DNA of 63,952 nucleotides, filler included, from Albugo candida (lineage: Eukaryota), in NCBI GenBank assembly GCA_040437565.1. It is 32 parts of 32 records of this genome, joined end to end, with 100 filler letters (N's around TTAATTAATTAA, not from the genome) between each part and the next. Parts side by side here need not be neighbours in the genome. Positions count along the whole stretch, not along the records: positions 16,369 to 18,293 come from JBDOQK010000377.1; 31 more parts are not named here. One strand, written 5' to 3'. A program made the position numbers and the translations under genes. This document shows positions 2,079 through 32,357 of this stretch, piece by piece. How positions within the stretch are numbered: the first letter of the stretch is position 1; the number at the start of each line of letters is the position of its first letter. The notes beneath the pieces were generated by a model. That model saw only the letters and a list, made by a program, of their open reading frames with translations. It was not told the DNA's origin and did not search any database.

Positions 2079-3385
2079 TAGAGAACGAAATATGTGATAT
2101 TTGTTGAGTCGTTAAGTCATTACAAAATAAATTGCTGTATTATGTTTGGTGAAAAAAAAATCCGGAACGCGACACAAGATCCTCCTGCTAAGATAGATAG
2201 CATGCATAAATCTTACTCTCTTTTCCAAAGACCTAAATTGGAATTCTTCGCGAGAGCGAATGAGGCATTCTTTCGAAACCGTTCAATAAAAGACATCCTT
2301 TGTGACACGTTAAGGAAAGGCATCCTTTCCGAAACTTAGCAACGTAAAAAAACTTTAGGACATGACAAATTTGTCGCAATACAGGATACATTCTCACAGT
2401 TTTCTCGCGTTGTCATCGTTCAACAACTCAATACAGCGCTCTTCAAAGGTGTTGTCTTCGCGTTCAAAATTATTACCTTTTTTTATAATAACTTATTTGA
2501 CAACAAAGAAATGACTTCAAAGCCCTATGGCACTCCATTTCATCAATCTTCTTTCTTCGAAAATGAGAATCATGTGCCGAAGCGACATTTTTTGCTAATA
2601 AACATTGATATAATGTTAAATTTTTGCTCTTGTCTTTTGTCATGTGTTTTTAAGTAAACCACCAGAATTGTTCCGATAAACCGAAACTTAAAGTGTTTTA
2701 CTAATCACATTATGTATCACTATACTACAAGTAGCGTATCAATAAATCAGAGACCTGTTTCGTAAACTAGATGCTTTTGCAACGTAAAAACTGAAATTGT
2801 TGTGAACCGTAAATTTGAAGTTTTTACTGGTTAAAATCTAGGCTCGTGTGCTACCGACTCATTTATACCGTGGAACAAGTATATTTTGTGAACAGCTTCC
2901 AATTTATTTATCTTAATAAAAACTATCGTTCATCTACTTTAATTTTATTTGTAATATTGAATGTAAAAGGTACATGATAGGTGACTTTCGTGTCTCTTGG
3001 AATTTCCTTTCTATTTAAACATTCACCTAATATAATCCAACCAAATAAAATACTAGCAACAAAAAAATTAATCAACTTGAAGCAGAAAATTTTGTATTTA
3101 GGAAGACTATTGGTAACTGTTAATCAAGAGTAAAGCTTTGTTTTTCGGAAATTTGAGTGAGGCCAAGCAGGCTTAACAGATATCTCCAGTACATCCACGC
3201 TAAAAATCGTTCTCTGGTTATTACTGTTGAATTTTCACTATCGTACACCAAATTAAACTAAACCAAATGCACTCGTATAAAAATCGATGTCAAAAAAAAC
3301 AGTGCAGAGATGGACCACAGTGATAACAAAAACTTAAAAATCTGTTTAGAATCCGCTATTTTTTTTTTCAAGATTAATTCAATGA

Positions 3386-4043
3386 CCGTTTACACTTGAA
3401 AAAAATCCAGTGAGGAGTGAAACCACACAATATCAATAAACATAAAAATAATTCAAACTCAGATTTTTTTTTCATCCTTAAAAATAGTGTATTTCAGTCG
3501 TTGTTTACACTTAAAAAAAATACTTTTGAGAAAACCCCAGTGAGGAGCAAAAACATACGATGGCAATATATATACCTATAATACAAACTCAGATTATTTT
3601 TTGAAAGCCTTAAAAATAGTGTAATTCAGACGACATTTACAATCGTCGTTTACACTTAAAAAAATCGCTTTTCAAGAAAATCCAGTGAGGGGTGAAAACA
3701 AACAATATCAATAAACATAAAAATAATTCAAACTCAGATTTTTTTTTTCATCCTTAAAAATAGTGTATTTCAGTCGTTGTTTACACTTAAAAAAAATACT
3801 TTTGAGAAAACCCCAGTGAGGAGCAAAAACATACGATGGCAATATATATACCTATAATACAAACTCAGATTATTTTTTGAAAGCCTTAAAAATAGTGTAA
3901 TTCAGACGACATTTACAATCGTCGTTTACACTTAAAAAAATCGCTTTTCAAGAAAATCCAGTGAGGGGTGAAAACAAACAATATCAATAAACATAAAAAT
4001 AATTCAAACTCAGATTTTTTTTTTCATCCTTAAAAATAGTGTA
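3386..4043. repeat. Tandem repeat, ~276-bp unit made of two related ~130-150-bp subunits, truncated by contig end
   Basis: CCCCAGTGAGGAGC occurs at 3535 and 3811. Each subunit carries GTTTACACTT, CCAGTGAGG, AAACTCAGATT and CCTTAAAAATAGTGTA. Confidence 0.92.
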
Positions 4044-6206
4044 NNNNNNNNNNNNNNNNNNNNNNNNNNNNNNNNNNNNNNNNNNNNTTAATTAATTAAN
4101 NNNNNNNNNNNNNNNNNNNNNNNNNNNNNNNNNNNNNNNNNNNACGCAACAAGTAGTCACACTTCCTCAACCTTGTAAGAGTATCAGTACAATCATTTCA
4201 CCAACTCTCCATCAATTCCATCACTTAATTACGCGCGTATCAACAACTTGCAATGGGAGGATAGGCACTAAACCGACCAAATACCTCCAAGATATACTAC
4301 TGTCGCGTACATTCCGTCTTGAAGTCAATGCATGCCGCATCCGTTGAACATTTTTGCTAGCAGTATCGATCCAGACGCCACTTGCCTTCTCAATCTCCTA
4401 ACTGAACATTAATCGCAATTCCAAGACCACAAACGAATTCTATTTTTAGAAATAGCAAACAAAAAAATCCTTTTAACCAAATCACATTACACCAACGAAA
4501 AATGACTCGGACACCGAACCGAGATATCTTATGTGCCATCGCGTTTCCAAGGCTGGGCGATAAACATGAGATTGGTGGCCACTTGCATTCTCTCTGAGAT
4601 CCATAGAGCGATGACGGGGTCGAACGTCCCTTCCACGAATAGAAAATTGATCATCACTTTGGGGTACATATCATCCAACAGCGCGAGCATAACCTAAAAA
4701 CTTGTGCTGTGCTTGATAGGTTAAGCACCCCGCAATTACTTCCATTTATCTCTAGTTATTTGCGACCCAACACGCTTTATAATATTCCAAAAAAGTTACA
4801 TCTTCAAGCACATGTCTTTACTCATTTGGAAACGATTTCGTGTTGGCAATCACTACAAGGAATGGCGTAGTGGGAGAAGGACAAAAGGAGCGAGCCTTAT
4901 GGCAGTAAACATCCGGTAGGAGACTACATTTCAATTGATTCTCGAGCTCAAGTAGTGATAACTGTACTTTCTTTTCATCGACGATAGGTTAAATTCGGCC
5001 AGAAGCACCTTCTCATAAGTTCTGCTATGCATACATTTAAATGGCTGCAGGTATATGCTATAATTCGGTTTGCTCTATGGCATACAATAGCGACATGTGG
5101 CATGACGGGTTTGAAGAAATGCTATAGCATGCGCCGCAGAAATATTTTGTAGCATTCACTGAGAGCGAGTCAAAAAGGCTTCACACATCTGAACGCTTTG
5201 ATTATAATGCTACTTATCTCGCCGATATTGAAGCATCTGGATTACCCATGACTGACTAGAAGTTTGAATTGACAAAGAAGTCTTGGAAAGAAGCAAGCGA
5301 CACCGAAGTCGTAGTCAGAACGTGGTAAATAATTGAATAGGTACAATGCTAACATCTCAAGATCAAAAATGGTCATCGTGACGCCTCATATGACACATGC
5401 GAAATCACTGTCAGAGTGAAAATTCATCATCCGAATTCCGTGCATTGCTAAAATATCTTGTTCTAGGCTCCAAGACTTGCGGCAACGACCAAACCTCTAC
5501 TTTAACTAAAACGACATAGAATTTTATTCATTATCCAATAGGATTACAAGGCGGTGCGTTTGTACAGATAATTACCCTAATTTCATAATTACTCTGTGTT
5601 TCAATTGATTATCCACATTGCTTTTTGCTAAACTTTCGTTGGGACGAAAGTCGGGGCATCACAAAGAGAAACCTCACATACAAGCAGAATCTTCTCAGTG
5701 CCAGCAATTATTTCCACCCAAGTCATTGATTAGCGGTAGTTTTGCGAGCTGTTGGAAATGCCACTGTATCTATGTCAGCTATCGTTTCAGATATGCACTT
5801 ATTCTGACGTGATGACCTTTTCGTCTGCGTGATCCTTGACAAAATCTAGTCGAAGTCGATATATAGCCTTGATTTAAGTTTCTTCATTGACTACTCATCC
5901 ACATTTCGGTGACTCATTCACATTAATCCTATTCATTGAAACAGATGTAATGCTCCTAGTACTCTCTGACTGTTTATGGATGTTACAAATAATGCCATAT
6001 AATATACAGTTGCACGCTTTTCTGTTTCTTGAATAAACATTTAATCGTCATTTCATTTTCTAAAAATTCAATGTCTATGATATTCACTCTCGTTGCACGA
6101 TCGGCTNNNNNNNNNNNNNNNNNNNNNNNNNNNNNNNNNNNNNNNNNNNNTTAATTAATTAANNNNNNNNNNNNNNNNNNNNNNNNNNNNNNNNNNNNNN
6201 NNNNNN

Positions 6207-14343: not shown

Positions 14344-14497
14344 CCCAAACCCTAGTTAATACACAATTCATTTAAATAGACAACACAGCTCATTTTAATA
14401 AAGAATTGATCATCTTTTTACACTCTGGTTAATCCAACTGTCTATTTTGATTTTTATTTTTTTATATTTTGTTTTATTTTTATCTTCGGATTCCTCA
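14344..14497 (+). mobile_element. 3' part of the 5' LTR of a Ty3/Gypsy retrotransposon
   Basis: Contains AATAAA (~14397) and a T-rich U5, ends in CA at 14496-14497, and is followed by a T-tract and gag. Same layout as the element at 25.6 kb. Confidence 0.6.
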
Positions 14498-14527
14498 TTT
14501 TTTTTAACCAGCGTGTACTTTGTTAAT

Positions 14528-16268
14528 ATGGCTGTTTCTCGTAATCGTAATCGTAATCAAGACTTACCTGATAATCTCAATAGTGGTGGTTCTTCGCCTT
14601 CCTCATCTTTATCTAGTCAAGCTTCTTTGTCGCCTGCTGTAGGTCAGAATGGTGATGGCAACACAGTTAGTAATGAACAAGTTGCTGGTTCTACTAGGAT
14701 GGAGGTCGATTCTGCTACAGAAGAGACTCGTGCAGCACCTATTACCTCAATTTCTACTACTTCATCTACCACTGATTCTATTGCTATGTTGGAGAACTCT
14801 ATTATGTTGGTAAGAACAAGTATTGCTGAACTTTCCTCTTACATTTCTGCTGCTCCTCATGGTACCGATGAACAGAATGCTCGCACTTTATTGTCTAATA
14901 AGATGAAAGATCTTTCAATGTTTACTAAAAGTCTCAGACTTTTACAAGGGAATAATGTTACTACTTCACCTGCTTCTGTTGTTAAAACTCCTCGTACCTC
15001 ATCTGTTGTGCCTCGTGGTCTAGCTGCCTTTCAGTGGGATGGTCAAGTTGTCGATCGTTCTTTGGGTCAAGTATTTACTGATGTCAAGTTATGTATCCAA
15101 CATTTTCAAGATGTTATGAACAGTTACAATTTGGATCTCGATTCAAATTTTCTACGTGTATTAATATTACCACCTTTACTTCACTCTTATTCTATGCGTG
15201 CTTGGTATGGAGACTTTCTTACTACATTTAAAGAAAAATATCAACGCAACCCTACTTGGAATGAATTCACTACTGCTATTATCGATCGTTATGGCAAGAA
15301 TATACATGAAGAACGTGCTGCTTGCGCTAGGGAATTAAATGAAATAAGAATGAACTCTGGTGAATCTATTGAAGCATTTAATGACAGATTCAACAATCTT
15401 TGCCGTAGAGCTGTGGATCAAATCTTACCTAGTTCAGTTCTTCTTGATGTATATGGAAAGGCTCTTCCTGCTGGTCTTTACCGCGAAGTTGCTCTTGCTA
15501 CTGCCACACTTCCTGAAGCTGAAAAGAATGATATCAATATTATTAGTTCTGCTACTCGTCAATTGTATAACAAATTCAAAAGTCACTATAAATCTACTTC
15601 TTCTTCTAAACGTACTGGTAATGAATCTTCTGGTACTGAATCTTCTACATCTGGGACATCTTCTGTATCTGGATCATCTTCAACTTCTTCTACTCACAAG
15701 AAGCGTCACAGAGAAGAAAACTCTGAAAAATCACACTCATCAAATAAGAAATCTACTTCAAGCAAGAAGGACAAGGGTAAAGGTCGTGCCGACTCAAACA
15801 AGTGGTGTTCGCATCATAAGGTATCTACGCATAATACTGAAGACTGCCGGGCTATTTCTAAAAAGGATTCTGACGATGATGAGTCATCTACCAAGAAATG
15901 TTTCAAATGTGGTGAAGCTAACTGGACTCCTGGTCATAAATGTAAAACCACTGCCCACCGTTCTAATGCTGATACTCGTACTTTTGCTGCCTTGGAATTC
16001 ACTTCTCGTAAGCCTGCTGACTCTGCTCCAGCACTTGCTGAACCTTCTTCTCAAGCTCTTGTGGTTTCGACCATGGACAATCATCCTTCTACTTCATCTA
16101 CTGTTGCTTGGAACAATTTTGCTGTTTCTAATCAAGCCAACACTTCTTCTACTGGTACCTCTACCACTGCTATTACTAATGGTTCATCTTTATCTTCTGA
16201 AGATATGGAAATTGATACTGAACTTGACGAAGCTACTGCTGCTACTATTGCTGAACAAGCTCAAAACT
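14528..16268 (+). CDS. gag: Ty3/Gypsy Gag polyprotein (3' truncated)
   Basis: Retrotrans_gag-like core (PTWNEFTTAIIDRYG...MNSGESIEAFNDRFNNL) with knuckles WCSHHKVSTHNTEDC and CFKCGEANWTPGHKC. Likely ATG at 14528. Confidence 0.88.
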
Positions 16269-16368: not shown

Positions 16369-17106
16369 GTTTTCCATTGATCAAGATCATACATAGTTTT
16401 GCTTTCTTTTTTAATAAACTGTTTTTTTATTCCTTTAAAATCATTTGTAAATATAGTATCAATAAAATCAAGCATTTTTTTATTATTGGTCGCAATAACT
16501 ATGTTATGCCCCTTTTTAAGTGAATTTATCATTTCATCTATATACTTGTTTTTTATTGTGAATAGTATATTCATTAATTATATATGATATTTTTCTATTA
16601 AAATGACTTATATAATCTATATAACCCGAGTTTAAAAGAGCATCCATAATAATTATGTTATTCTTTTCATACATTATTTGTAAGAATGCATCATGGCATC
16701 TTTTTTTCTCTTTAATTGAAGACACTAAATGATTCATAGTATATGTCATTTCATCGAAAATGACTAGATCGTATTTTCCTCTAATTCTTTTTATAGAGTC
16801 CATTTGGCAGATAACATATGGGTGCATATCCGGTGTAATAATTCGACCAGTAATTTTATCGTATATCTCGAATAAATTAAGTTCTTGTTCGTATTTTTTA
16901 CATAAAGTTTTTCTAAACGATAGAATTAAACAGTTTTTATACTTTGTACCTAAATTGTATTTAAAAAAATCATAAAGAGTATTTGTTTTTCCCATACCTA
17001 GGGTAGCTTGTATACATAACGTGTCATATTGATTAAATTCATAGAAAGGCATTGTTTGTTGGCATAAAATTGTGGTATTAATAGGTGTTTGGTTATTTTG
17101 AGTCAT
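16369..17106 (-). pseudogene. UL9/Herpes_ori_bp-like replication origin-binding SF2 helicase, frameshifted near 16545 and 3' truncated
   Basis: Ordered motifs ATLGMGKT (I), ILSFRKTL (Ia), VICQMDSI (Ib), YDLVIFDE (II), IIMDALL (III), then KGHNIVIATNNKK (IV) in a second frame. Intronless and very AT-rich. Confidence 0.8.
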
Positions 17107-18121
17107 ATTGTCTTCGGTAGTATAGTGCAGAGTCAATAAGTATTATTTATTAAATATATTTGTTCTTCCTTTTAGGGTATCTTTTAAATTTATAATTAAA
17201 TTCAATTTTGATGATTTTTATATGCATAAATAAATTCTAAAAAACATTTTTGTTCTATAAAAAATTGAAATAACTACAATACAAGAACAGACTCCATTGT
17301 TGTTAATGAATTATTAAAAAAAAAAAACGTTACTTTATTTAAAAAGTAAAAGAGGTTGATTTTGTTTCAGAATTACAAAAAAGTGAAATTCGAAGCTAAT
17401 GTTCACAACATAACTTAACAAAGTAAATTAAGAAGATGAGAAGAAAATATGAATGTCAACTAAAAAAGCTTTGCCTAAAGTTGTTGAAAAATAGTTGTAC
17501 TTACAATTCAGCCTTGTATTTAACTACTTTCATTCATTGGCAAGAGGAAAAATGTGGGGTTCTCTACAAGTACATTTAGACTCTTAAAATATTTGAATGA
17601 CTCTTTATTTCAAATGCGTAGACAAAATGACTCAAAATGACTCCTTATTCAATGGTAACTAATGCTAAATTAGCATCAACTGCAGAGTCTTTATAAAGTT
17701 TTTACTCGACCAGCACATTGTTTGTTTTTAGTATGCACGTATTTTTGAGCTTTCCTCCTTAATTATTGCTATTCAATTGAAAATAGTTCTTAATTCAACA
17801 ATAAAACTTAAAAATCTGTATAATTAATATTTACTTGAAAACGTTGTTGTAAGACTCACTTGACAACTTATTGTGGCCCATATTTATTATGCTGGGAACA
17901 TTATTATTTCTTTTTCATTCCGTTTAAGCGCTAAAAGCTATAGAAATTCATAGAAGCCTTTCTCGGTTTTTCATTGGCTGCTTTTCCAATTTTTTTTTTG
18001 TAGATGTAGATGTGATTGGTTTTTTCGGTCTTTGGATAATTCTTTTAAAAAATTATAAAAAAGGGCCAAAAAAAAATTTCCGTTTTTTTTTTTCTTTTCT
18101 TTTTCTTTACACCTTTAGCAT

Positions 18122-18293
18122 TTGGACAATTTTTAGTGGATAAACGATTACGATGAACGATTACAATTGGACGATTACGATTGGACGATTAAGATAGAAC
18201 GATTACGATTACGATTGGACGATAAACGATTGAAAAATTACGATGGACGATGGATGACGAATACGATAGGACGATGAATGACGAATACGATAG
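18122..18293. repeat. Degenerate short tandem repeat (GGACGATTACGAT-like), running off contig end
   Basis: Repeated ACGAT/GGACGA cores. Confidence 0.85.
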
Positions 18294-22333: not shown

Positions 22334-24448
22334 NNNNNNNNNNNNNNNNNNNNNNNNNNNNNNNNNNNNNNNNNNNNTTAATTAATTAANNNNNNNNNNN
22401 NNNNNNNNNNNNNNNNNNNNNNNNNNNNNNNNNAGAAAAAGCTGCATCAATGGATCTTGATAAAGATTATAGAACTATTTCAAGTGAATAAACATCTACT
22501 TATGTGCGAGCCAACGCCGCTATTAAAGGTCCGTCAACGTATGAAGAGGTTCATCAGGATACGGAAAGAAATCATTAGAAAGATGCTATCCAACAGAGCT
22601 AAATGCTTTGCTTGTAATGGAATGATAGAATTTTTTCGAGTAACCCATTGAGAATACCATATTTGGATGTAAATGGGTATTCAGCATTAGAAAAATGAGC
22701 ACGGCGAAATTTTGTGATACAAAGCTCGAGTTGCTGTTCAGAGGTTTCGACAAATGCTAGAAGCTAATTAATCGAGAGCAAATCACCTGTAGCCACCAAG
22801 AGCTCCATTAGGCTCTTTTTATCACAAAGTTGCAATCTTGAATTGAAAAAAAAAGCACGATTTGAACACAGCCTTTCGAACCGATAACTTTGAACTAGAC
22901 ATATACATGTGGCCTCTACGGTTTACCAAAACCAGAGTTGGACAAGTTTGCAAGTTGGAAAAAAAGCATATATGCTGTTAAAACAAGCAATAGCAGTATG
23001 GTTAAAACCATCACAACAGCATTTGTCGACTCGGAGCCTCACCCAGAGTGTGACGGATTCGTGGATACTCATGCGAATCGATTGTATTGGTCTTGTGCTC
23101 CTCGCGATATACGTAAAAGATATGCACATGTTAGCGAAAAAAGTTAAAACGTCTCTGTCGATACAATTCAGACCAAACTGTCAGAAATTTTTGTGGTATC
23201 ACATATTCAAAGATACTATTTCTTTAAGGTCCTGAGTTCAAAAAAGATAGTTCAAGGCAAAAACACAATTCTCTAAATTCCTATCTATACTTTTAGTAAC
23301 CTTTTTCTTATCTCAACCTCCCTCCTTATTTATGATCTGATCCTATCCGAATTTCCTATGAACTTATCCTATTGTCTTCAACACATACAAGCTTAGAATC
23401 ACAGTATCCCGCATAGATTGGACGGGAAACAAAAAACACTTTTTCTATGAAACATCCGAAAAGGCCATAATGTCTCAACAAAAGAGAATTTGGATCTCAA
23501 CGGAGAAAAAAAGTCCAGGAGTACTATGTGGCAAAATTTACCAGAATTTAGGCCCCAAATCTGTGTATCTCTTTCAACTTCATTCGATGAGAACATCTAA
23601 ATACTTACCTTATCAAAATGTACTTCTAAAAGCTTATATTGCTGAAAACTCCAATATTATCATTTGATCTTGGTTAAGCGTTAGTCCAGCACAGAAAGCA
23701 ACTTGACTGCTCTTGGCAGGAATTAACAAAATGTATTTTGATCTTGACTAGAATTTTCGTGGTTTGATCACAGCAGTGCACAAACATTCCCAAACGGAGA
23801 GATTGAACTTGATATTTCAGTAGTCCTTAAGAGTTTACTTATAAGAAAACATTTGTTGTTTTCCGATTTTGCCGGTCTGATGAATAAACTGTGACAAAAA
23901 ATTCTTTCTACGAAGACTGATGCTAAAAATTTAGTTAGATTTGTTTTTCTGACCATTCTAAGGTTTTATGAAGGTTGAAAAAATTGATGAATGAAATGAT
24001 GAAACTGTTCACTGGCATATATACTGGGGTTTCAGCTGTTTTTGCTTGTCTTCACCCTGGCCTTCGTTTACTTTTCATCTGACAGGATACAGAACGCAAC
24101 ATTCAATTTCTCGGATTCATTTTGTTGACCTTGGCTACGGATCTTCGATGGGGTGGACCGACACGTCGTCGAGAGTTGACTCAAAAAATGCGTTGAGCAA
24201 TATCAGAATACTCGCACACGCACTTCCTGAATGCTCAGATATTATCTGGTATCGCTCATGCAAAAAGTCGATGTGGATTATGTGTCTACATACGGCTAAG
24301 GTTTTGTGGCAGACAAATCTGCCGCTAAGATGCAGATTACCTGATGATNNNNNNNNNNNNNNNNNNNNNNNNNNNNNNNNNNNNNNNNNNNNTTAATTAA
24401 TTAANNNNNNNNNNNNNNNNNNNNNNNNNNNNNNNNNNNNNNNNNNNN

Positions 24449-25589
24449 ATCCAGAGTTACGATGGTTACCAGGAGCATACTTGGACTTATGAGAGGAAGG
24501 ATAATTGTCTCTATTATCTTCACTATACTCATAATGGGGGCGCTTGGGAGCACGAGGAGCAGCAGACGACTTCATGTTCTTAAAAGACCGGAACATATCC
24601 TTGGCAGCATTCATCATATACTCAACATTAGTCCGTTTAGCTTCGGGGACAAAAGACGAACCAGAAACAAGAGAGTTTTGAACATTGTCAGGCATAGCAG
24701 AACAAAAATGCTCAATTAGAACAGAATCATGCATCACCCGGTCACCAGCCTTACGACGCAAGAGATTAAAACGACTGATGAAAGCTTCAATCGACTCATT
24801 ACGATGCATAGAGATCTCACCTAATTCCAAGACAGCCTTACTTCTTTCTTGGTAGATATTAAGCCCGTATTGATCCTTGATGGCTCTAGAGAATTCCTCA
24901 AAGGTGGGTTCACGTTGATAAGCAGCACGATGAGAAGACAAAAAAGCCTTAAACCAAGATTTGACGGTGTAACCAAACAAAGGAGGTAAAAGCCTAGCAA
25001 AATCTTGATCGATGTTCATACCATAACTACCTAATATGTCAGTGAAATTAGAGAGACACTCATCAAGGTCAACAGCAACAGGAGCACGAGAGTCATGAAC
25101 CTGACCTTCCCACTGGAAGGGTTGAAGATTACGTGGAACAATTACAGCAGCAGGTCTTGAGATCACAGTAGCGGCATCACCACCAGAAGCAGCAGCGGAA
25201 GAAGAAGCAGGATTAGTAGTATCAAGAGCCTGTTTAAGAGTGCGGCGGATAGCACTTAAGTCTTGTTGCTTTTCAGCTAACAAGTTTCGCAACCTAGCAG
25301 AATCAGCACCAGGAGGAGTAGTAGCCAAATAGACTGCCCTTTCAGTAGTTTCAGCAACCAAAAGTTCAATGCACCACTTAAGTTGCGCAACTCTTCCAAC
25401 AGGTCGAGCACTTGGAGAAGGATCTTCCATAGTGGCATCTACCGCAGGAGCAACGTTGGGCACAACAGGGACAGTAGGAGCAGCATCAGAAGCAATAGGA
25501 GCAGTACCTTGACCATTATTAGCAGTAGCAGCAGCAGCAGAACCAACAGATTGTTGATTGGCAGGTGTTTCAGAACGAGTAGCAACCAT
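24449..25589 (-). CDS. gag: Ty3/Gypsy Gag (3' truncated), homologous to 14528-16268
   Basis: IVPRNLQPFQWEGQVHD aligns by eye to VVPRGLAAFQWDGQVVD. Gag core EPTFEEFSRAIKDQYG...MHRNESIEAFISRFNLLRRKA. Confidence 0.88.
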
Positions 25590-31050: not shown

Positions 31051-32357
31051 ATGACCATTATTAACAACGAAGAAAATGCGCTCATCATGTTCAATCATGT
31101 TCAACAATCTAGCTCTAGATTACAAGAAGAATTTATGTTGAGAGATGAGGAATATGACAATTGCATTGAAGAGGATGAATTAAGAGAAAAGGAAAAGAAG
31201 AGAGCAGAAAAAAAAAGAGAGAGAAAGATTATTAAAAAGCAAATCAAAAAAGAAAAAGTGTTGAAGTTGATTGCAGTCATTCAACAAGTTCAAACTTCCC
31301 ATGTGTTAAACACCCTTATGCTCGTCAACAAAGATGTCTTTTACATTATTTACATTGGTGGTCTTCACCTTTTGGAAGCAAGAGTTGTAACAAGAAGAGA
31401 ACCTGGAGGAAGAAGTTCTGAATGGTGGCAATTGGAACACCCTAATCTTGTAGATCAACCCGAGAATGGAGCACCTGTTGATCGCAGACTTATCTTCAAG
31501 AACCATTATCGTATTACCTTGAGGACATTTGAAAGATTAGTCAATCGATTGATGCAGAGTAGAGCTTATGCTGGTTGTGTTGCTAAACCTTCATCATGGG
31601 CCGTTTACAAACAAGTAGCAATTGTGTTATGGCGTTTTTCTAACACTAGTTATGGATATCGCTTGGCACTATCCAAGTTCAAGGTTGGTGAGGGCAGCTA
31701 CAACGAATTCACAAACAGGTTTGTTAAGGCTATGGTAGAAGAAATTCAACCAGAAGTCATTCAATGGCCTTCAACTTCTGAAGAATTTACTGAAATTGCT
31801 AGAGGAATGGCAAGAACGGCGGATGTAAGGAAGCCTCGACTGGAAAATGTTTGTGGTGCTACTGATGGTAAGCTTGTTGCTATTGCCGCTCCTAAGAAGT
31901 CTGACGATCCTGAGAGATACCGGGATTATAAGAACCGCATCAGTATGAGCCTCCAAGCGGTTTGCGATCATAGAATGCGTTTTAGATCAATCTTGACTGG
32001 CCTTCCTGGAAGTTTCCACGATTCTAGATGTTTCAAATTAAGTCCCTTATATAGGGATCTTATTAATCATCCTGAAACTACTTGTATGAATAATACATTC
32101 ATTATCGGTGACGCTGCTTACCCTTTGTTACCAAAGTTGTTCGTACCTTACGTGGTTAACAGAGGAAGACCTGCTGCTGGAGGACAAAGAAGAGTTACTT
32201 CTCATATGCAAAAGAGGTTTAACAAGCGTTTGTCTTCAACTCGCATGAAGATCGAGAAATGCTTTGCTCTTTTTGTTAGCCGCTGGAGATTTATGTTCAA
32301 GCACTTGTATTTAAAAGATGTGACAAGAATGGCTTATGTCATTACGACCTGCTGTGT
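31051..32357 (+). mobile_element. PIF/Harbinger DDE transposase (DDE_Tnp_4-like), 3' truncated
   Basis: FKNHYRIT..TFERL, GATDGKLVAI, LQAVCDHRMRF, PGSFHDSRCF, IIGDAAYPL, FNKRLSSTRMKIEKCFALFVSRWR. Confidence 0.93.

Follow-up and report, generated by a model that had tools for sequence, protein, structure and literature searches.

Which kind of genetic element places a UL9-type helicase, as its only recognisable gene, on a short AT-rich contig? The question is raised by one contig of the window, that is, of the whole 63,952-base stretch of DNA analysed here, which consists of 32 contigs arranged by size from 1978 down to 1845 bp and joined via N44-TTAATTAATTAA-N44. The contig in question occupies window positions 16369-18293 and corresponds exactly to one contig of 1925 bp. 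An earlier reading, made from the letters of the window without database searches (hereafter, the sequence-only reading), had proposed that the gene came from either an endogenous DNA virus or an undescribed self-replicating element. On balance, we incline to the explanation that the contig holds a copy, inactivated recently, of an initiator gene from a so far undescribed family of DNA units, each of about 2.2 kb with one gene and probably plasmid-like. These units are found with Mucorales-type fungi, at least one member (from Sporodiniella umbellata) being so placed. The feature in the window is itself a pseudogene fragment, and its value is that of a lead to the family.

The disrupted helicase gene and its protein family

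The gene lies on the minus strand and reaches the end of the contig, with the features given below; P0003 is the family member used as reference for the deletion.

16369..17106, minus strand: 5' part of the helicase gene, about 246 codons, of a short-form UL9/CyRepA-like superfamily 2 (SF2) helicase; disrupted and running off the contig end
16534..17106, minus strand: first reading frame (protein P0001), 190 codons and a TGA stop, with Walker A and motif II
16984..16998, minus strand: Walker A (motif I), G37-M-G-K-T41; the P0003 residues G21 and K22 are kept by 23 of 23 aligned relatives
16750..16755, minus strand: motif II, D118-E119 followed by M-T; the P0003 residues D100 and E101 are kept by 23 of 23 aligned relatives
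16539..16542, minus strand: deletion junction (at about 16541/16540), about 29 nucleotides (nt) gone, that is, the nine codons for NYGTNKTAF of P0003 and 2 nt; the frame shifts
16369..16559, minus strand: second reading frame (region of protein P0002), from the helicase core onward to the contig end, with an E value of 3.3e-20 for the family profile

The first reading frame, with its ATG at 17106 and its stop at 16536-16534, matched the Pfam family PF02399 (Herpes_ori_bp) with an E value of 4.9e-19 and 68.4 bits, well above the gathering cut-off of 20, residues 29-181 being aligned on profile positions 51-215 of 820; the ResIII family reached just 27.4 bits. The assignment to the UL9-type helicases, already made in the sequence-only reading, was thus confirmed, and so were two of its further statements: Walker A stands close to the ATG (GMGKT is at residues 37-41), with no primase-like region before it, and no intron is needed across the 738 nt that are present. 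When the profile of the family was run on all six frames of the contig, it matched at 17106-16522 (E 6.5e-89) and at 16553-16371 (E 3.3e-20) and nowhere else on either strand, the best upstream values being E 0.87-6. We found neither a second gene on this contig nor any relatives of P0001 of fragment length. The single Trp codon of the gene is TGG, which says little on a mitochondrial location.

The frame had also been said to be broken by one frameshift. It is indeed broken once, by a deletion of about 29 nt and not by a single-base shift. Precisely, P0003 (696 amino acids, aa) is 97% identical to the window gene over 171 residues, and tblastn placed its residues 1-171 on the contig at 97.1% identity and its residues 175-238 at 89%, the two pieces overlapping by 20 nt and skipping 3 residues at the break. 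A separate assembly of sequencing run X1, the probable source, showed 0 differences from the window over 16369-17852, deletion included; X1 may be the source run and hence is not independent of the window contig, and the identity means that the gap is present in the reads. Both assemblies break at 16369, inside a conserved stretch. The residues that are invariant in the family are all kept in the surviving part of the gene and the identity to P0003 is 97%, yet the frame is broken, so the inactivation of this copy looks recent. The contig therefore does not carry an active element, as had been thought possible, since its copy is defective and cut by the contig end.

Longer relatives (16 at first, later 38 full or near-full proteins) were 455-759 aa long and 34-100% identical to P0003, with the intact ones at 643-759 aa and up to 97% identical to the window gene. 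Nearly all of them match PF02399 alone, some with a weaker overlapping ResIII match, the full-length ones scoring 75-98 bits, and none is informatively named. For P0003 and eight other short-form proteins PF02399 was the sole match, and for P0025 no family was found. Across 23 relatives with 31-83% identity, the G-K of Walker A, the D-E of motif II and the Q-Q-x-x-R-x-R of motif VI were invariant in 23 of 23, which suggests functional constraint. Many members have a zinc ribbon at the C-terminus.

A profile built from the 23 relatives was searched against 177,635 distinct sequences of the Protein Data Bank (PDB), in which it matched the origin-binding protein of herpes simplex virus (HSV) alone (four matches, E about 1e-25), with no further sequence at E ≤0.01. 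The AlphaFold 2 model of P0003 had a pLDDT of 87.2 and a pTM of 0.83. With this model, Foldseek returned the HSV structure 9hgi first (E 4e-21), the next entry being an unrelated helicase (1.3e-10). In VIA-align, chain 9hgj_A gave a Z of 27.9 with 520 residues aligned (model residues 1-642 on chain residues 63-843), whereas other helicases stayed at Z ≤19.9 and covered model residues 1 to about 409 alone; hence the C-terminal domain, as modelled, is UL9-like too. The possibility that the gene encodes an ordinary cellular SF2 helicase is answered in the negative by the same comparison, in which the HSV origin-binding structures stand 8 Z units above all other helicases.

One-gene units of about 2.2 kb

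The evidence on the kind of element comes from the contigs on which the relatives of the window gene are found. For 41 of 41 proteins of the clade to which it belongs, the longest contig was between 2044 and 3007 nt (median 2335), and one open reading frame (ORF) fills each contig, leaving 70-991 nt (median 217) outside it. Within clusters the sizes recur (2243/2243/2247, 2473/2452/2474, 2334/2333, 2069/2067 and 2236/2230/2230/2205), a pattern not to be expected from random genome fragments. One such unit is the 2257-nt scaffold of Sporodiniella umbellata (Mucorales) that carries KAI9243162.1 (P0028), a "hypothetical protein, partial"; it bears out the occurrence of the family in fungi and means that at least that unit exists as DNA in a fungal genome project. 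Its gene model of 229 aa is mis-spliced, matching residues 49-317 and 475-522 of P0016, and the gene beneath it is seemingly one for a helicase of about 650-700 aa, with no introns. Gene prediction made for eukaryotes apparently garbles such units. All the clade proteins with a listed source come from Logan, ENA or JGI and have no informative name, the single NCBI record being the mis-spliced one, which suggests that fungal assemblies routinely drop such elements or annotate them wrongly.

The order of the parts of a unit was read from the contigs of four runs aligned to the window contig, among them X1, X4 (labelled as a food fermentation metagenome) and X18 (labelled as a soil metagenome). 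Three features upstream of the window gene are needed here.

17107..17146, minus strand: leader, from the conserved block to the ATG; about 96% identity over a 518-nt contig of run X18
17147..17209, minus strand: conserved non-coding block, candidate promoter or origin region; at least 90% shared with related elements in other runs
17202..17209, minus strand: AAAATTGA octamer, exact, in the orientation of the gene and 95 nt upstream of its ATG; a lead only

A contig of 2243 nt, the size of the contig of P0186, occurs in both X4 and X18, and its last 50 nt align to 17208-17161, a stretch upstream of the window gene; block sequence (17208-17174) followed by 15 further letters forms its end. Translation of the sequence that immediately precedes the block gives KKCLTCKFKL, the C-terminus of P0186, whose stop aligns with 17204-17202. 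In relatives, therefore, the conserved block directly follows the stop codon of the helicase. By arithmetic from the size of the protein, a contig of the P0186 type has 52 nt before the ATG and 43 nt after the stop, hence 95 non-coding nt, and in the window the distance between the aligned position of the P0186 stop and the gene's own ATG is also 95 nt, equal to the non-coding total of the 2243-nt contig. The 518-nt contig of X18, about 96% identical to the window gene, spans from inside the ORF into the block, and in both X4 and X18 the block is bridged by short contigs (97 and 47 nt). In the alignment of the block with a contig of another run, over 63 nt, 2 letters differed and there were 3 gaps; the identity of at least 90% holds between elements that have diverged far more in their coding sequence. 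The order in the family contigs is hence ORF end, block, leader, ORF start, as expected from a circle, a concatemer or a tandem array. The k-mer depths of family contigs were 33, 16 and 7.9 in X4 and 15, 7.7 and 5.9 in X18, with 819 for a 2248-nt contig (the size of the contig of P0174) in X2; such unequal depths within one run argue against equal-copy parts of one genome, although they are figures per contig with no single-copy baseline and not copy numbers.

This limit of the depth figures is the first of several points that weigh against small plasmid-like circles. The label "DNA?" of the runs is a guess. Circularity would follow from combining two different family members, by way of proteins, contig sizes and short aligned fragments, and short reads from a tandem array in a chromosome would look no different. 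The 1.08 kb of DNA upstream of the window gene has the same k-mer depth as the gene (9-12.5), so that at least the window copy is not a 2.2-kb circle. Longer contigs also occur, namely L001 (5189 nt, with a transposase gene) and, outside the clade, those of P0091 (5694 nt) and P0115 (16162 nt). Finally, the best hairpin in the conserved block was not significant (z -0.29, with 73 of 200 shuffles folding as well) and no iterons were found in the block, hence the origin may lie partly inside the ORF.

In the explanation that we prefer, the units are as follows. Each encodes a short-form SF2 helicase, presumed to bind an origin, with a UL9-like core, a C-terminal domain that is UL9-like as modelled, often a zinc ribbon, and no primase. 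The ORF fills the unit, and a short non-coding stretch (95 nt in one measured unit) leads back to a gene start. The unit would hence be a circle or lie head to tail, a small plasmid-like episome being most probable. If HSV UL9 and CyRepA are taken as models, the C-terminal domain may recognise a site in or near the conserved intergenic block, after which the SF2 motor would open the DNA, and priming and synthesis would be left to the replisome of the host compartment or of a helper. The protein has no primase or polymerase, which would imply reliance on such a replisome. As for the window copy, it has lost about 29 nt, with a frame shift after codon 190, and on the upstream side it adjoins AT-rich DNA that is unrelated to the family and ends in a satellite-like array; the deletion and this upstream DNA together make it a dead copy, either integrated or rearranged. 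In this account the family, the fold, the clade, the contig sizes, the deletion and the succession of stop, block and start were observed, and circularity, an extrachromosomal state, origin binding, dependence on a helper and integration were deduced.

Of the alternatives, the one that survives best places the units in the chromosomes: they would form a tandem array or a dispersed multi-copy family in a fungal nuclear genome, and the window would hold a decayed member at the edge of the array, next to satellite DNA. We consider this unlikely, though several observations fit it. Short-read graphs collapse arrays to a unit-size contig at raised depth, which gives both the fixed sizes and the stop, block and start order; the window copy is flanked by non-element DNA and a satellite-like array at equal depth; and the break of both assemblies at 16369, in a conserved stretch, is what would be expected if the copies share sequence. 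On the other hand, 41 clusters of the clade, with 34-97% identity, share the one-gene unit size, and the catalytic residues are strictly kept, which fits a selfish replicating unit better than arrays arising repeatedly. Moreover, no clade member was found on a long contig except in L001, and the depths differ within one run.

With the plasmid-like explanation retained, a wider statement can be made: Mucorales, and perhaps other eukaryotes, may carry diverse circular plasmids of about 2.2 kb that have a UL9-like helicase as their sole gene, were derived from giant-virus primase-helicases by loss of the primase, replicate through the replisome of the host, the mitochondrion or a helper virus, and leave occasional dead copies in the genome. 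We hold this wider statement tentatively, as a serious possibility that falls short of an expectation. If it is true, the units would rank with the smallest autonomous replicons of DNA that encode a protein and are known from eukaryotes. As true episomes, the units would represent a minimal eukaryotic DNA replicon, with one initiator gene and about 100-200 nt of non-coding DNA, and would link the origin binding of herpesviruses, the primase-helicases of giant viruses and the CyRepA plasmids of bacteria through one protein architecture. They would also offer a simple system for the study of how a UL9-type protein picks and opens an origin, and, as good plasmids are lacking for Mucorales, could provide these fungi with a natural backbone for vectors. 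We found no description of helicase-only 2-kb elements in fungi in the literature, in a search that left most subscription journals outside and is therefore not proof. The kind to which the family belongs, that of replicons defined by an initiator helicase, is already known. In its probable mode of action, the gene product comes closest to the origin-binding initiators of plasmids or viruses.

Some variants deserve a mention beside the units. P0201, P0182, P0183, P0170 and P0185 are on unit-size contigs with shortened ORFs, one of them a frameshift variant that ends in KKKFFTEYF and the others beginning at an internal Met near or after Walker A; they could be defective variants or circularly permuted contigs. 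P0198 (178 aa, on a 1371-nt Logan contig) is a C-terminal fragment of the clade that follows about 20 coding residues of GC-rich appearance (MWRCAHAHARHPPDHGATHP...), and may represent a junction with foreign DNA or an assembly chimera. L001 (1-5189) is a metagenome contig, mostly of 19-25% GC, and was the best metagenome locus in a protein-guided scan, at just 34% identity. It carries a DDE_Tnp_4-like ORF (608-1969) and, behind it, the closest clade helicase to have longer surroundings (2268-4748, 826 aa), with a repeated AAAAATTGAATTTT box before both ORFs, and a 38-nt tandem array (4935-5189) that runs into the contig end. L001 is possibly a larger relative of the 2.2-kb units.

Relationships with viral and bacterial replication proteins

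We performed an exhaustive HMMER search, which gave 423 representatives at E up to 0.001. These were of two kinds, a short one with the helicase N-terminal and a long one of 1000-1250 aa with the helicase after residue 370-550; the N-terminal part of P0024 and P0027 is a Prim-Pol followed by PriCT_2. Trees were inferred with FastTree on 178 rows and with IQ-TREE (LG+C20 PMSF) on 57 rows chosen from those, after exclusion of proteins <600 aa, ten near-duplicates and long forms matching <350 profile positions. Three bacterial CyRepA1 proteins served as outgroup, the root being chosen and not inferred. The short-form proteins formed one clade, with a support of 100 in FastTree and an SH-aLRT of 99 in IQ-TREE, which lies among the long forms with a PrimPol-PriCT2-helicase arrangement, including loci from metagenome-assembled genomes (MAGs) of giant viruses in IMG/VR. 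Its sister group is poorly supported (80-86). The phylogeny with viral homologues that had been suggested earlier thus places the clade among these fusions. In both trees, bacterial CyRepA1 is outside the eukaryote/virus-type group. The range given beforehand for the family (herpesviruses, Nucleocytoviricota and some early-diverging fungi) holds as regards fungi, with the Mucorales member, and omits the bacterial plasmids with CyRepA1.

The closest solved structure is that of HSV-1 UL9 (9hgi, 9hgj, 9zgf and 9vjh; PF02399). As in UL9, an SF2 core and a C-terminal domain that is UL9-like as modelled are in one polypeptide with no primase; UL9 is the sole solved structure matched by sequence and has the best fold over model residues 1-642, reaching UL9 residue 843. 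The differences are that the identity is 14-15%, that the family protein is about 150 residues shorter, with a zinc ribbon in many members, and that its gene is alone on a unit of about 2.2 kb and not in a virus genome of 150 kb. In PMC13483431, the UL9-like SF2 subfamily is defined by the motif II sequence DEVM/DEIM, by a C-terminal domain with a dimerisation core and a SAP subdomain that forms a homodimer, and by a "bridge" motif between RecA1 and RecA2. Motif II departs from this pattern in the present family: the window gene has D-E-M-T, and the relatives have D-E, then M, V, F or Y, then T or S.

The second explanation to be weighed derives the contig from the giant-virus world, either as an endogenous fragment of Nucleocytoviricota or as a helicase-only satellite episome (comparable, in miniature, to transpovirons or to the 2-kb episome of pacmanvirus) that giant-virus machinery would transcribe and replicate; we find it doubtful, somewhat more so than a chromosomal array. 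The nesting of the clade among the PrimPol-PriCT2-helicases, some of them from giant-virus MAG loci, speaks for it, together with a GC content of 25-27%, which is giant-virus-like. The closest proteins outside the clade are in fact those of Marseillevirus, of mimivirus relatives and of Bodo saltans virus, with 35-40% identity in the N-terminal lobe, which are named "replication origin-binding protein" or "helicase-primase". In fold, too, the viral models that match best are those of giant-virus proteins (E 4e-41 to 3e-35, TM-score 0.61-0.73), including a Marseillevirus "helicase origin-binding-protein". However, the viral fusions are 1000-1250 aa long, with an archaeo-eukaryotic primase and PriCT-2 in front, and belong to large genomes, whereas the window family is without both domains.

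The exact AAAATTGA in the conserved block points in the same direction, since, according to PMC5294985 and PMC11788076, mimiviruses and pacmanvirus have this octamer as their early promoter, and so do the helicase gene of the pacmanvirus transpoviron and the 2-kb pacmanvirus episome; in the latter it is given as preceding genes of transpovirons and of PLE, a 2-kb episome that belongs to pacmanvirus lostcity. In L001 it occurs 6 times against 2.25 expected, always on the coding strand (5 of 200 shuffles reach 6), with three copies just upstream of the ATGs of the transposase-like and helicase ORFs. In the whole window, by contrast, its count is at chance level (12 against 11.5 expected). Transpovirons and PLE are small AT-rich episomes and resemble the present units in the helicase gene (transpovirons) or in the size of about 2 kb (PLE). 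PMC11788076 describes transpovirons as linear, of about 7 kb, with terminal inverted repeats and several genes, and PLE as coding for three small, functionally uncharacterised proteins, with no UL9-like helicase among them. The present family differs from a transpoviron both in size and in gene content, 41 of 41 contigs being 2044-3007 nt long with a single ORF.

Further evidence runs against a giant-virus source. Neither the window contig nor any of the 41 family contigs carries a capsid, polymerase, packaging or other viral gene. Among 21 loci from the viral contig collection, none exceeded 30% identity over >200 residues (L100 had 35% over a 60-residue piece), and the exact block pattern had 0 matches in that collection. 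The one named host record is the genome assembly of a cultured fungus, and we know of no giant virus of Mucorales. An endogenous large DNA virus on this contig, the first of the two sources proposed in the sequence-only reading, thus found no support, no other gene being present; the second, an undescribed self-replicating element, fits better, with 41 of 41 clade genes alone on contigs of 2.0-3.0 kb.

A plasmid of CyRepA type from a bacterial contaminant or endosymbiont is the third explanation, and it can hardly be right. One-gene plasmids of 2 kb are common in bacteria, and small plasmids with a CyRepA-type gene exist, such as the 5.2-kb pARA7 of Acinetobacter. CyRepA1 is moreover the strongest curated match over the whole protein: the NCBIfam profile aligned to P0003 with E 1.5e-47, residues 13-601 being on profile positions 6-582 of 595 (CyRepA1/CyRepA2, NF042913). 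As an initiator of plasmid replication, small plasmids included, CyRepA is the best functional analogy for a helicase-only replicon. The scores are nonetheless below the cut-off of 200 bits (162.8 for P0003; 149.8-165.3 for the set P0003, P0186, P0019 and P0174; 68.5 for P0001), and the tree branch is separate. The bacterial proteins, of about 980-1130 aa, have about 280-390 residues (DUF3854/Toprim-like) before the helicase, which are absent in the window family; according to PMC10079941, CyRepA combines a Toprim-like domain with a DEXDc helicase and makes cyanobacterial plasmids replicate autonomously. Among 72,556 plasmid records (PLSDB), 62 matched, all with <60% identity; the 25 matches listed had 21-26%, the best ones being CyRepA-type genes, that of pARA7 included. 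A scan of 185,579 prokaryotic species genomes gave 51 candidate stretches, none of which was confirmed, and the exact block pattern had 0 matches in prokaryotic genome contigs. The 1.08 kb of non-coding DNA upstream also speaks against a bacterial plasmid. The check for a bacterial contaminant proposed with the sequence-only reading was thus negative.

Gene-sized chromosomes of the ciliate type were rejected as an idea at odds with the stop, block and start order and with the standard stop and Gln codons. The fungal mitochondrial plasmids that encode a polymerase or reverse transcriptase also differ from the present units, in which PF02399 is the only domain and there is no room for a second gene.

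Upstream DNA and surroundings in the window

Beyond the conserved block, the window contig continues with two further features, given with no strand.

17210..18138: AT-rich DNA, 929 nt, about 26% GC; no ORF of at least 60 aa and no similarity to the helicase family
18139..18293: degenerate tandem array with ACGAT cores, running into the contig end

The AT-rich DNA is probably not part of the canonical unit. We looked in it for a degraded upstream copy of the helicase with the C-terminal 30-residue peptides of 12 relatives, and 11 of the 12 were below the 95% level of the shuffles. By eye, 17249-17234 resembles the coding stretch for K-C-L-E that stands before the block in a relative, with a 3-nt insertion, and we did not rely on it. 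An inverted repeat of 44 nt (17092-17135 and 17598-17641, 73% complementary) shares a 12-mer around the ATG, and a 10-nt tandem duplication (CAAAATGACT in 2.1 copies, 17623-17643), 500 nt upstream, repeats in inverted orientation 12 bases around the ATG. We judged both to be compatible with chance in AT-rich DNA.

The array has periods of 14 (4.9 copies, 83% matches) and of 24 (2.3 copies, 93% matches) and contains, within its 155 nt, 16 ACGAT cores, whereas each of the other contigs has 0-6 over its full length. It begins 1033 nt upstream of the ATG, so that the repeat noticed earlier at about 1 kb upstream is real. Its suggested role as origin or terminus was not borne out, the conserved block at 17147-17209 being 930 nt away. 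As intact units leave 70-991 nt (median 217) outside the ORF, the array is probably flanking or satellite DNA, and it probably accounts for the contig ending there. The k-mer depth in run X1 rises at the last bin, over the array.

With 26.9% GC, the helicase contig is the lowest of the 32, the others ranging from 31.1 to 45.3%. An AT content far higher than in neighbouring genes had been claimed, and the contig is in fact the most AT-rich of the set. However, the contigs of the window are unlinked, hence those genes are not physical neighbours and synteny across contigs is meaningless.

No RNA run was among the runs listed with sequence of the helicase contig. In the window, we found no tRNA, no Rfam family and no terminators, and the sigma-70-like promoter matches were at or below the level of the shuffles (11 against 13.8). 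Poly-A ends are absent from the other contigs of the window. The source assembly looks like fragmented genomic DNA from a eukaryote rich in transposons and repeats. Transposable-element genes are present on other contigs of the window (14344-16268, 24393-25589, 52311-54161, 31051-32357 and 48376-50091), these being two Ty3-type gag ORFs, a pol fragment with reverse transcriptase, RNaseH and integrase, a DDE_Tnp_4 transposase and a Transposase_21 (tnp2) fragment. The sole ordinary housekeeping gene identified was a peroxiredoxin ORF (AhpC-TSA, E 1.4e-35), alone on its contig at 38468-39304.

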